A stretch of DNA of 64,000 bases from the NCBI GenBank assembly GCA_040377305.1, contig JBEIPA010000015.1, positions 66,842 through 130,841 on the forward strand, in the 5' to 3' direction. Shown one piece after another: positions 10,333-16,393 of this stretch. The notes beneath the pieces are model-generated. The model was not told where the DNA came from and did no database searches. It was given only the letters and a program-made list of their open reading frames with translations. Position 1 is the first letter of the stretch; each line of letters opens with the position of its first letter. Origin of the DNA: Flavobacteriales bacterium (GTDB taxonomy: Bacteria; Bacteroidota; Bacteroidia; Palsa-965). Both the position numbers and the translations under genes were made by a program.

Positions 10333-11241
10333 ATGAAGAAACTGATACGTAAGCTCATTTTTACTTTACCTCCGGTGAAAAATCTGGAGAAGGAGCTTGC
10401 AAAGTATAAAACCTATCACGCGCCTGGTCATTACTACAGTCCGGTGCCTGACAAGGAATTCGTACGCGCTAATGCTGAACGGATTTTCGATCGCTCCGAT
10501 AAGCAACTGCATGGTATAAACATGCGTGCAAGTGAACAGTTCGATTTACTGAAACAGTTCCTTCCGTTTTATGCGGAGCATCCATTCACACCGAAGAAGA
10601 CCGAAGCCAATCGCTATTATCTGGAGAATGGCTTGTTTTCGTATTGCGACGGCATCTTTCTGCATTCCATGATTCGTCATCTGAAGCCGAAACGAATTAT
10701 TGAAGCGGGCTCTGGATTTTCTTCTGCAGTCATTCTTGACACAAACGAAAAGTATTTCGGCAACAAGATTGATGTGGTGCTGATTGAGCCATACACCGCA
10801 AGTCTCGATAAACTCACCGAAGGTCACAGCAAGCACTTTCGGATGGAGAAGAAATTTATTCAGGATGTAGACCTGAATATTTTCCGCACACTGGAGAAAG
10901 GTGATTTACTGTTCATTGATTCCACACACGTTTCAAAAGCGGGTAGTGATGTTAATCATATCCTTTTTGAAGTGTTGCCCATTCTTAATGAAGGTGTGTA
11001 TGTTCACTTTCATGATGTGTTCTGGCCGTTCGAATATCCGGAAGGATGGATCGAAAAAGGTTTTGCGTGGAATGAAGACTACATGCTGAGGTCGTTCCTG
11101 ATGTATAACGATCACTATGAAATTGTCTTCTTCAACAATTACATTGAACGGTTTCAGAAGGATTGGATTGGCAGTAACATGCCCGATATCCTGAAGAACG
11201 GTGGCGGCAGCTTATATCTCCGAAAAATTAAAGCCGGGTGA
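10333..11241 (+). CDS. Class I SAM-dependent methyltransferase (Methyltransf_24-like)
   Basis: IIEAGSGFSS, LFIDSTH, VHFHD, WNEDY. Confidence 0.88.
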   Translation: MKKLIRKLIFTLPPVKNLEKELAKYKTYHAPGHYYSPVPDKEFVRANAERIFDRSDKQLHGINMRASEQFDLLKQFLPFYAEHPFTPKKTEANRYYLENGLFSYCDGIFLHSMIRHLKPKRIIEAGSGFSSAVILDTNEKYFGNKIDVVLIEPYTASLDKLTEGHSKHFRMEKKFIQDVDLNIFRTLEKGDLLFIDSTHVSKAGSDVNHILFEVLPILNEGVYVHFHDVFWPFEYPEGWIEKGFAWNEDYMLRSFLMYNDHYEIVFFNNYIERFQKDWIGSNMPDILKNGGGSLYLRKIKAG

Positions 11242-12008
11242 GTGTTCCCTTGAATAATTCAGCAATCATTATTCAGGCACGCATGGGTTCGACCCGCATG
11301 CCAGGAAAAGTACTGGAGCCTTTTTACGCAGGTAAATCTATTCTTGATATCATTCTGCAAACACTCCGCACGAGTGTGCATCAACTACCTGTTGTATTGG
11401 CAACATCGGTGAGCAGTCTGGATGATCAACTGGAAGCATGGGCGCGCACGAATAACATCGGAGTGTTTCGCGGACATGAAACAAACGTCCTCAGCAGATT
11501 TACCGGATGTTGCGGGCAATTCGGTTTCGATTATGTAGTCCGCGTTTGTGCCGATAATCCATTTCTCGATGTTGATCTGCTGGATAAAATGGTCGCTGCA
11601 GGCATTGCGCATCAAGCCGATTACTGCAGTTACATGGCAGCAGATGATACACCTGCGATGAAGTCGCACCTTGGCATTTTTGCGGAGTGGGTAACAACTG
11701 CAGCACTGACAAAGGCGCAAACATTGACCGATGACCCGCTGTTTACTGAGCATGTTACCAATTTCATTTACGGAAATCCGGACCAATTCCGCCTTCATTG
11801 GCTTAAAGCGCCAGAGGTACTGTACAATCGCACGGACCTGCGTTTTACAATCGATACTCCGGAAGATTTTACCCTCATGCAGGAGCTTTACAGTCTTTTG
11901 GCAGAACGAGGCGTTCCGATTAACTTTATCAACCTGTTGACGCTTGTGGAAAGCGACACGCGGGCCTTACAGATCATGCAGAACCAAATTCGCAGATTCA
12001 CAAAATGA
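11238..12008 (+). CDS. CMP-nonulosonate synthetase / cytidylyltransferase (SpsF / CTP_transf_3; putative CMP-KDN synthetase)
   Basis: IIQARMGSTRMPGKV, RVCADNP, EHVT, RFTIDTPED; directly upstream of the synthase. Confidence 0.85.
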   Translation: MSVPLNNSAIIIQARMGSTRMPGKVLEPFYAGKSILDIILQTLRTSVHQLPVVLATSVSSLDDQLEAWARTNNIGVFRGHETNVLSRFTGCCGQFGFDYVVRVCADNPFLDVDLLDKMVAAGIAHQADYCSYMAADDTPAMKSHLGIFAEWVTTAALTKAQTLTDDPLFTEHVTNFIYGNPDQFRLHWLKAPEVLYNRTDLRFTIDTPEDFTLMQELYSLLAERGVPINFINLLTLVESDTRALQIMQNQIRRFTK

Positions 12009-13054
12009 GTGCAGGGAAAAGTATTTACGTGATCGGAGAGATCGGACAGAACCACAATGGATCTGTTGATATCGCAAAATTGATTGTGGATGCTGCTGCG
12101 CGTCCGATCGAAGAAAATCTATTTGGCTTAAAGTTAAAGCCAATGAATGCAGTGAAGCTCACACGTCGTGATCTGAATGAAGAACTTTCCAAATCACAAA
12201 TGTCGCGCCCTTATACCAGTGCACATTCATTTGGAAAAACCTACGGCGAACACCGGGAGTTTCTGGAACTGAATGATGAGGAGCATCTGGAGGTGTACAA
12301 GCACGCGAAATTTCACGGACTGGATTTTGTAGAAACACTTTGCGCGCCCGGTTGTTTATCATTACTCAAGCTTTTCACACCCGAGTATCTGAAAGTTGCC
12401 AGTCGCGATCTTACGAATCTTCCTTTGCTCAGCGCAATGGCAGAGACGAAGATTCCAATGATACTTTCCACTGGAATGGCCGGACAATCGCAGCTAAACG
12501 ACGCGTTGGAAGTAATTACAAAATACCATTCCGGAATTTCTATTCTGCATTGTGTTTCACAGTATCCGACACAACCGCAGAATGTAAACCTGCTTACGAT
12601 TTCATGGCTGCAGAAAAATTACGCGCAGTACATGATCGGATATTCTGATCACACCATCGGTATTTCCACTCCGGTGGCAGCTGCCGCAATGGGAGCACGC
12701 ATTATTGAGAAGCACATTACGCTTGATCGCCGAATGAAGGGAACAGATCAGGCAGGTTCACTCGGTCCAGATGGAATAAACCGACTGATGCGTGATTTGC
12801 GTGTGCTCGAAATGTCGTGGGGAAGAGAAGAGATGTTCATTGAGCCCGGCGTTGAAGAAGCCCGTGTAAAACTGGAACGCTCGATTGCAACCAAGCGCGA
12901 CATGAAGAAGGGTGAACGCATCAGCGAGGCCGACATCCACATGCTTTCCCCGGGCGATGGATACAAGTGGAGTGAACGTGCTGCGGTTGTCGGTAAAACG
13001 CTGAGCAACGATATCGCTTGTGATGAAATTATTTATCCATCTTCATTATCATAA
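12005..13054 (+). CDS. NeuB/SpsE-family nonulosonate synthase with SAF domain (putative KDN-9-phosphate synthase)
   Basis: GEIGQNHNGS, KVASRD, LSTGM, LHCVSQYP, GYSDHTIG, IEKHIT, C-terminal SPGDG; resembles B. thetaiotaomicron BT1714 as recalled. Confidence 0.9.
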   Translation: MSAGKSIYVIGEIGQNHNGSVDIAKLIVDAAARPIEENLFGLKLKPMNAVKLTRRDLNEELSKSQMSRPYTSAHSFGKTYGEHREFLELNDEEHLEVYKHAKFHGLDFVETLCAPGCLSLLKLFTPEYLKVASRDLTNLPLLSAMAETKIPMILSTGMAGQSQLNDALEVITKYHSGISILHCVSQYPTQPQNVNLLTISWLQKNYAQYMIGYSDHTIGISTPVAAAAMGARIIEKHITLDRRMKGTDQAGSLGPDGINRLMRDLRVLEMSWGREEMFIEPGVEEARVKLERSIATKRDMKKGERISEADIHMLSPGDGYKWSERAAVVGKTLSNDIACDEIIYPSSLS

Positions 13055-13066
13055 CAGATCCGAAGG

Positions 13067-15111: not shown

Positions 15112-15123
15112 ACTGTACCAGCC

Positions 15124-15867
15124 ATGAAAATCATCATTGGGAAAATGTTGGAAGCTACCGGAGCAGGTAAGGGCGCAGCGATTTGTGTGCAGAGTTCCCT
15201 TCGTGGCATTGAGCATGGCAGTTTGTCTCCGTCCGACATTATTTCAGAATTGCAGTCGAACGTTGGTGATTCCGGTACAGTTATTATGCCTGCATATAAT
15301 TTTCATGCGTGGACGGAACAAAAAAAGTTTGACTATCACGAAACGCCGTCCGAAGTCGGTGCGCTAACGGAGTATTTCAGGAAATCCCGGGATGTGCAAC
15401 GAACACAGCATCCAATTCACTCCTTATCTGTTTGGGGTGCTTTGAGTACAGAACTACAAGCGATTGATTCGCAAAATTCATTCGGTAACGATTCGGTTTT
15501 TGCACGACTTCTTCAGAAGAATAATTTTTACATCACCTTGGGAACGGGACTGGCTATGCCATTTCTTCCCTGTCATTACACCGAACACAGACTAGGAGCT
15601 GGTTATCGCCGGCTGAAAACATTTTCCGGTACTTATGTCGATCGGGATGGAGCCGAATCCGCACGCGAGTATGGTTTTGATGTGAAAAAAGACGAATTTC
15701 GTCAGGTGGAGGCGCCGGTTTACAAAGCGCATATTGAACTTCACCGCACCGGAGTAGTGAAAATGCAGACGATCGGAAACACGCACGTATGTTGGGCTCG
15801 TGCAGGTGAATACGACGATGGTTTTGCAGAATACATGCGTAAGAATCCGCGATTGTTTAACAACTGA
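15124..15867 (+). CDS. AAC(3)/Antibiotic_NAT family acyltransferase
   Basis: [39 protein letters not shown]. Confidence 0.85.
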
Positions 15868-15880
15868 AACACACCAGAAG

Positions 15881-16393
15881 ATGGGATTGCCAAAAATTGT
15901 AATTACTGACATTGACGGCGTGTGGACCGACGGCGGAATGTATTACGACCAGACTGGAAACGAATGGAAGAAGTTTAATACATCCGATAGTGGCGGCGTT
16001 TTGTTGCTGAAACATTTAGGAATTCCTGTGGCGATTATCACGGGAGAGAATACGGAAATTGTCGCACGCCGTTCAGCTAAACTTAAGATAGATCACCTGT
16101 TTCAAGGTGTACGCGACAAGGTATCAGTTGCAGCAGAGTTGTTGCGCGTACTTGATATTCGTTTTTCGGAAGTTGCGTATATCGGCGATGACATTGGAGA
16201 TCTTGAATTGCTCGATAAAGTTGGTCTTGCAGGTGCACCGGCGAACGCTCCTAACTACGTGAAGAAGAAAGTGAAGATTGTTACCAAGGCCAAAGGTGGA
16301 GATGGAGCCTTCCGTGAGTTCGTTGAAACCATTCTCGATAAAGAGGGTATTCTTGAACAGACGGTGAACGCATTGACCACGAATCTGAAATAG
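15881..16393 (+). CDS. HAD C0 phosphatase of the KdsC family, putative KDN-9-phosphate phosphatase
   Basis: [29 protein letters not shown] closely matches BT1713 as recalled; TGE rather than the TGR of Kdo-8-P phosphatases; [13 protein letters not shown]; start at ATG 15881. Confidence 0.9.

Follow-up and report, generated by a model that had tools for sequence, protein, structure and literature searches.

Two described systems come closest to the locus analysed here. In Bacteroides thetaiotaomicron, the synthase BT1714, the phosphatase BT1713 and the cytidylyltransferase BT1715 form the pathway to cytidine monophosphate (CMP)-activated 2-keto-3-deoxynononic acid (KDN; PMC6200933). In Campylobacter jejuni, the DUF4910 protein Cj1295 is required together with Cj1296/7 for di-O-methylglyceroyl pseudaminic acid, and Hitchen et al. 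2010 put Cj1295 forward as the enzyme that takes the acetyl group off C5 of pseudaminic acid, a reaction that was not demonstrated (PMC3068675). Das et al. 2014 tied DUF4910 to amino-sugar N-acetyltransferases, sugar methylases and SpsE/SpsF, again with the reaction not demonstrated (PMC4000134); N-deacylase activity is a hypothesis only in both papers, and the reaction of DUF4910 has stayed unassigned since 2010-2014. We studied a 64,000-nucleotide stretch of a Flavobacteriales bacterium (assembly GCA_040377305.1, contig JBEIPA010000015.1, positions 66,842 to 130,841; called the window), in which genes for a methyltransferase, a DUF4910 protein and an AAC(3)-fold acyltransferase stand within an operon that resembles the B. 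thetaiotaomicron KDN genes.

Six open reading frames (ORFs) on the + strand (11238..16393) were real and intact, in the order cytidylyltransferase, synthase, methyltransferase, DUF4910, AAC(3) and phosphatase, and successive intergenic gaps of -4, 12, 17, 12 and 13 bases bore out the gene order and tight packing of the original prediction. For the phosphatase, the ATG at 15881 (170 amino acids, fitting the homologues) is a likelier start than the GTG at 15800. One contig of sequencing run X1, possibly the source of the assembly, covers 10500-16071. Contigs of run X3, from another study, span the methyltransferase/DUF4910 (13485-14042) and AAC(3)/phosphatase (15731-16031) junctions, and a contig of run X2 spans the DUF4910/AAC(3) junction (15041-15198). 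Since contigs from independent studies bridge its internal junctions, the gene arrangement is real; an assembly chimera was rejected, all three junctions around DUF4910 and AAC(3) being crossed by contigs from two other studies. The window has the same three families in the same order as B. thetaiotaomicron, but differs by the three genes between synthase and phosphatase and by a different putative transferase after the phosphatase.

As a proxy for BT1713-1715 we used the locus L132/L196, whose phosphatase shares 162 of 163 residues with PDB 3e81 (BT1713); a Bacteroides-centred candidate (L130) was dropped because it was not the BT1713 match. The cytidylyltransferase, synthase and phosphatase of the window were 38%, 65% and 61% identical to this proxy, and the cytidylyltransferase occupies the same position as its counterpart. 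Against the curated KDN-9-phosphate phosphatase model NF058599 the phosphatase scored 248 bits (cut-off 180), and its best PDB match was 3e81 (E 1.3e-59). Like the proxy, the synthase stayed under the cut-offs of the NeuB (TIGR03569, 240 vs 400) and PseI (TIGR03586, 194 vs 340) models. Aligned with 89 members of the clade, it lay on a branch apart from the PseI-type rows, with few, mostly conservative departures at well-conserved columns, none of which was common to the other DUF4910-linked copies. Identity as a Neu, Leg or Pse synthase was rejected on the sub-cut-off scores, the similarity to the proxy and the separate branch, in line with the grouping that had been expected. Altogether, a genuine KDN trio orthologous to BT1713-1715, as originally proposed, is supported, and its product is predicted to be KDN. 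The synthase is the sole full NeuB in the window's genome (G000, rated 99.99% complete), where NeuC, NanE and GlcNAc 2-epimerase (PF07221) all stayed below cut-off, which indicates that the genome lacks a dedicated supply of ManNAc(-6-P) or of a diamino precursor. Likewise, neither NeuC nor a Pse/Leg dehydratase-aminotransferase exceeded its cut-off among 32 window proteins scanned against NCBIfam, which agrees with what had been said of the window. In many Bacteroides KDN phosphatases (L066, L070, L136-L147) the cap motif GDVMKRFSVKDG replaces the other form, and a change of substrate is possible there.

The gene after the synthase had been labelled TylF-like. The label holds in so far as the gene product has 32% identity with a protein of the TylF family, but Pfam (including TylF) gave no match at E 0.001, and the closest solved relative was CalS11, matched over its full length (residues 11-238, E 1.4e-62). 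CalS11 (PDB 3tos/4gf5) is the TDP-rhamnose 3'-O-methyltransferase of calicheamicin and methylates the nucleotide sugar before transfer (PMC4760980). For the window enzyme, too, methylation of the nucleotide sugar is predicted; it differs in that it stands in a KDN operon and belongs to a clade tied to KDN-type synthases. The clade comprised 20 rows, own copy included, of a tree built from 39 distinct sequences (identical ones merged, the unpublished genome G412 with loci L105 and L242 left out), and 19 of the 20 adjoin a KDN-type synthase (FastTree support 0.995). Homologues occurred in 25 of 401 genomes of the class. Of those other than the own copy, 7/8 with at least 61% identity, and 0/17 below 60%, lie between synthase and phosphatase.

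Within the genus of the window, the synthase was found in 9 of 26 genomes. All nine have the order synthase, methyltransferase, phosphatase and a 437-amino-acid gene, with neither DUF4910 nor AAC(3); three of them are 72-88% complete, yet their loci are contiguous across the junction. Because it holds the same slot position in all nine relatives, the methyltransferase is, judged by gene order, an ancestral member of the operon that is older than the arrival of DUF4910 and AAC(3). We further compared the best 80 of 576 synthase loci, the phosphatase being present in 75. The slot between synthase and phosphatase was widened in 24 of these 75: ten hold this methyltransferase directly between the two genes (a set that overlaps the genus relatives), eight a hexapeptide-type acetyltransferase (Pfam was checked on one of the eight), two a GT2 gene, and one each an acyltransferase_3, another methyltransferase, a PD-(D/E)XK gene and a stretch without ORF. 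DUF4910 was present in 1 of the 80. The hexapeptide-repeat acetyltransferases, of 200 amino acids (L020, L047, L056, L059, L063, L067, L078, L080), are candidate KDN O-acetyltransferases.

DUF4910 occurred in 10 of the 26 genus genomes (9 of 25 without G412), with no overlap with the nine synthase carriers. Among 34 relatives, G412 alone was matched by the AAC(3) profile. As the operons of the genus relatives hold neither gene, DUF4910 and AAC(3) were likely inserted at the methyltransferase/phosphatase junction. The window DUF4910 is 41-51% identical to copies in relatives. In a careful tree of 26 of 54 aligned rows (identical sequences merged, G412 again left out; a FastTree version was also made) it did not group with its genus mates but, at 100/100, with homologues that have an AAC(3) partner and come from plasmids of alphaproteobacteria, from viral contigs and from the class-level genome G782. 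Elsewhere the two genes are adjacent in L205-L210, in the order opposite to the DUF4910-AAC(3) order of the window, and fused in L214-L216. On a plasmid the pair adjoins a complete Pse operon, and in other places it lies between phage tail and lysis-like genes with no nonulosonate gene nearby. GC content and GC content at third codon positions (GC3) of the pair match the host genes, so either the insertion happened some time ago or its donor was a similar genome. From these sequence comparisons, DUF4910-AAC(3) is a separately inherited mobile pair whose history differs from that of the methyltransferase, horizontally acquired and likely inserted into the operon. The original prediction of a three-gene cassette that builds a methylated acyl group is contradicted by relatives with the methyltransferase alone in the slot, and co-occurrence separates the pair from the methyltransferase and even from nonulosonate genes.

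Several further contexts were seen for the pair and for DUF4910. On viral contigs (L207:7133-9269, L208, L209:7223-9284) AAC(3)-DUF4910 stands alone with no sugar-pathway genes seen nearby; it resembles a moron for surface-glycan conversion and presents the pair in minimal form. Scanning metagenomes with the AAC(3) alignment left one locus out of 153 pattern matches (AAC(3), then a DUF4910-like start, context absent). In four genomes of one genus (L187-L190) DUF4910 directly precedes a TadA-like gene, and matches to sugar genes were not found in the vicinity. The usual Bacteroidota context of DUF4910 (L097, L120-L125, L177, L179, L181, L182, L184) has a NeuB of another clade, often with SpsF, a class III aminotransferase, a short-chain dehydrogenase and GNAT, followed by a gene of 460-480 amino acids without known function. 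No searched genome of the window's genus had both this set and the KDN set, as if they were alternative alleles of one locus.

The DUF4910 protein combines DUF4910, DUF2172 and HTH_47 (Pfam) with a single-zinc site, and H180 and H317 are retained in comparison with 3k9t. D195 of CA_C2195 aligns to N185 of the window protein with E186 adjacent, as in most homologues. The structure model of the AAC(3) protein (predicted local distance difference test, pLDDT, 94.5) matched BA2930, YokD, AAC(3) and FrbF at template modelling (TM) scores of about 0.8; H151 and E154 were invariant in 19 rows, and H151 aligns to H183 of BA2930. All solved matches listed were N-acyltransferase-family proteins, with no O-acylating protein of this fold among them, and we know of no O-acylating AAC(3)-fold enzyme. 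FrbF is an AAC(3)-fold enzyme that acts on a CMP-linked substrate. A role in aminoglycoside resistance was not supported (43.7 vs 270 and 36.8 vs 420 bits at the curated NCBIfam cut-offs). The AAC(3) gene contains an A7 run (15320-15327), where one contig of depth 3 is two bases short, either by error or by a slipped-strand switch; Cj1295 and Cj1296/7 carry homopolymer tracts of the slipped-strand type.

We tentatively favour an ancestral O-methyl-KDN operon into which a pair has been inserted that exchanges the N-acyl group of an N-acetylhexosamine (HexNAc) in the same glycan and does not modify KDN. The synthase would condense mannose-6-phosphate (Man-6-P) with phosphoenolpyruvate, the phosphatase would take off the 9-phosphate and the cytidylyltransferase would yield CMP-KDN, as expected from orthology to BT1713-1715. 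The CalS11-like enzyme would then O-methylate the nucleotide sugar, which follows CalS11 chemistry and the conserved gene position; we infer a CMP-KDN O-methyltransferase. Both steps seem probable. The 437-amino-acid protein might, on weaker grounds, transfer O-methyl-KDN. DUF4910 would strip the N-acetyl group from a nucleotide-linked HexNAc, e.g. UDP-ManNAc from the WecB of the locus, and the AAC(3)-fold enzyme would re-acylate the freed amine from acyl-CoA. This last step builds on Hitchen's hypothesis for Cj1295 and on the occurrence of the pair without carrier protein, and is plausible but short of probable. The WecB gene (22745-23830) is a candidate UDP-ManNAc source for the pair. Genes of the epimerase family belong to the same cluster here, and in the two other genomes with AAC(3), DUF4910 and KDN genes they are found on the same contigs. 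Another possible N-acetyl sugar source is a partial legionaminic-type set on contig C48 of the same genome (84638-90373; L218), with a LegC aminotransferase and a NeuD-type acetyltransferase over cut-offs, a PtmE-like nucleotidyltransferase and an epimerase; NeuB and NeuC were not found there. If the pair acts on HexNAc, the locus is an ordinary mosaic glycan locus.

Several observations weigh against this assignment. A reaction for any DUF4910 protein was absent from the literature searched, and WecB is present too in relatives without the pair. For the methylation step, CalS11-like relatives under about 60% identity are common in non-KDN sugar loci, and one relative of 69% identity has no neighbouring synthase. 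DUF4910 was present in 10 of 401 genomes of the phylum and 30 of 401 of the class, and 20 of 40 inspected Bacteroidota DUF4910 regions hold a NeuB-family match, mostly of another clade with aminotransferase and dehydrogenase, which points to a nonulosonate over HexNAc. AAC(3) was found in four of the 40 regions and a KDN-type phosphatase plus synthase in three (L044, L096, L185). In L044 and L096, AAC(3) and DUF4910 lie between the KDN-type phosphatase and a shared putative transferase of 533-535 amino acids, and the KDN-type synthase is the only NeuB in these genomes, where NeuC, NanE and GlcNAc 2-epimerase again stayed below cut-off; the L096 synthase is of a sister type (44% identity). An amine-requiring fold inside a nitrogen-free pathway, the oddity to which the original prediction had drawn attention, is real and recurs in other genomes. 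A single clade for the four KDN-linked DUF4910 proteins was rejected (approximately unbiased test, p-AU 9e-7), so the pairing arose at least twice; the four rows were not clustered on the tree beyond shuffles (64/500). Given how often DUF4910 has nonulosonate neighbours, the recurrence suggests, but does not prove, a direct role on KDN.

In that case the AAC(3)-fold enzyme would O-acylate (O-methyl) CMP-KDN, giving an undescribed acylated and methylated KDN, and DUF4910 would not be an amide hydrolase but would serve in ester editing, acyl shift or similar. We regard such direct action as rather unlikely, although it fits three genomes in which the pairing has at least two independent origins. 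Acylation genes do recur in the slot (the eight hexapeptide-type genes and the acyltransferase_3), but so do the unrelated PD-(D/E)XK and GT2 genes, which makes position alone weak, and AAC(3) with DUF4910 was found in just one of the 80 closest loci. In L096 the phosphatase is followed by ligase, acyl carrier protein (ACP), GNAT, AAC(3) and DUF4910, and in L185 a related ligase (33%) stands with GNAT-, ACP-, MBOAT- and SGNH-looking genes (labelled by eye) and DUF4910, as if AAC(3) had replaced an O-acylating system; the L185 genome, however, has a second full NeuB. DUF4910 is also found in CDP-sugar cassettes (PMC4000134; L093, L094). The CMP-linked substrate of FrbF likewise favours direct action. 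The structural matches listed, with no O-acylating AAC(3)-fold protein, speak against direct action. Were it true, this would be, to our knowledge, the first O-acylating AAC(3)-fold enzyme, DUF4910 would not simply be an N-deacetylase and the working model of 2010 would be overturned.

Less likely still is a passenger role, in which the pair would have been inserted at a hot spot of gene capture, would lack its substrate and would perhaps be decaying or phase-variable. Its absence from all nine KDN-carrying genus relatives, three of them incomplete as stated above, fits such a state, and so does the end branch of the window DUF4910, which is long (1.08 vs a median of 0.62). The silent/changed codons among differences in low-depth contigs (DUF4910 6/5, upstream methyltransferase 8/0; tiny numbers, maybe errors) and the contig short in the A7 run, which may be an error, might fit it too. 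Both frames, however, are intact, catalytic and metal residues are retained, GC and GC3 are host-like, the spacing is operon-like and the arrangement also stands in an independent study. Somewhat more doubtful again is a trio whose product, in useful amounts, would be a 5-amino nonulosonate (Neu5Ac formed through the phosphorylated route), with the pair exchanging the N-acetyl group of this sugar as proposed for Cj1295. This would fit Hitchen's pseudaminic acid C5 hypothesis exactly (PMC3068675), the human synthase accepts both Man-6-P and ManNAc-6-P (PMC6200933), and Serratia KDN capsules hold Neu5Ac at about 1:20 (PMC9000132). Against it, NeuC, NanE and GlcNAc 2-epimerase were not found over cut-off in G000, G223 and G458, and no conserved-column change common to DUF4910-linked synthases was seen.

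That the three genes act jointly in assembling and transferring an acyl group of the methylated glyceroyl type, with FkbH and ACP supplied from elsewhere, is very improbable. Neither FkbH nor a carrier protein was found among the window proteins scanned or the upstream ORFs listed, and for this reason a methylglyceroyl assembly line is unlikely. Close DUF4910 relatives in L202 and L203 do accompany an AAC(3)-HAD-IIIC fusion, and the single FkbH of the genome lies on contig C46 with an ACP-like and a further gene, but that module adjoins its own MBOAT gene, the methyltransferase predates the pair, and FkbH was found in 6 of 34 relatives, none of which had an AAC(3) profile match. The C46 module (9475-15182; L219) has FkbH, a 303-amino-acid gene, ACP-like and VOC-like genes facing MBOAT and is a separate acyl-carrier module. 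Like Cj1295 and Clostridium CA_C2195 (PMC4000134), the window DUF4910 stands beside an amino-sugar N-acetyltransferase in a nonulosonate locus with SpsE/SpsF-type genes, but there is neither carrier protein nor FkbH in the locus and its predicted nonulosonate is amine-free. The Campylobacter methylglyceroyl module differs in two further respects: the window methyltransferase is not co-inherited with DUF4910 and AAC(3), and an N-acylated nonulosonate acceptor is not indicated, the sole NeuB being KDN-type and NeuC not found.

A modified KDN, as first suggested, remains likely. O-methyl-KDN is a known natural sugar, 5-O-methyl-Kdn having been reported from Sinorhizobium fredii (cited in PMC7845648, PMC9000132); an enzyme assigned to it was not found in the literature searched, which most subscription papers lay outside, and a direct candidate is offered by the CalS11-like clade with its ties to KDN synthases. 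No report joining DUF4910 or AAC(3) to a KDN pathway was found among the titles and passages covered within the same scope; the general link of DUF4910 to N-acetyltransferases, methylases, SpsE and SpsF is already in print. The locus has only DUF4910 and AAC(3), without a carrier protein, and its predicted nonulosonate contains no nitrogen; as a minimal system it can tell the deacylase model apart from its alternatives.

Features of the KDN operon and its surroundings, in window coordinates
Feature	Coordinates	Strand	Evidence
SpsF-type cytidylyltransferase, predicted CMP-KDN synthetase, BT1715-like	11238..12008	+	PF02348; 38% over 250 aa to L196 proxy gene
NeuB-family synthase, KDN-9-phosphate clade, BT1714-like	12005..13054	+	PF03102 + SAF; 65% to proxy
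CalS11-like SAM-dependent O-methyltransferase, predicted to act on (CMP-)KDN	13067..13816	+	CalS11 E 1.4e-62
DUF4910/DUF2172/HTH_47 single-zinc hydrolase-like protein, Cj1295 family	13834..15111	+	Pfam; PDB 3k9t E 5e-102
AAC(3)-fold acyltransferase	15124..15867	+	PF02522; structure model
KDN-9-phosphate phosphatase, HAD, BT1713-like	15881..16393	+	NF058599; PDB 3e81; 61% to proxy
437-aa protein, putative CMP-ulosonate glycosyltransferase	16394..17707	+	3' of phosphatase in 9/9 genus relatives; beyond the six-gene block
WecB, non-hydrolysing UDP-GlcNAc 2-epimerase	22745..23830	+	TIGR00236 305 bits vs cut-off 210; NeuC model 73 vs 236

The 437-amino-acid protein is a putative CMP-ulosonate glycosyltransferase and, from its conserved position, an ancestral member of the operon. 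Its profile gave no matches in Pfam or PDB and its fold prediction without alignment was unusable (pLDDT 33). A lead to KpsS-like clusters was obtained, with PF05159 on 52% of members (Atlas), and HP and S..E motifs were invariant, which we take to resemble bacterial sialyltransferase motifs.

The operon belongs to a large Bacteroidota surface-glycan locus that extends from wzc/wzm/wzt-like genes upstream of the window to about 31,500. After the operon (17643-21450) follows a conserved block with a gene for 327-342 amino acids, a PfkB kinase, a SIS (GmhA-like) isomerase, an NAD-dependent epimerase and a short cytidylyltransferase. A GmhB-like phosphatase was not seen in this block, and kinase and isomerase are absent in one relative (L238). 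The block looks like a heptose-like or alditol nucleotide route.

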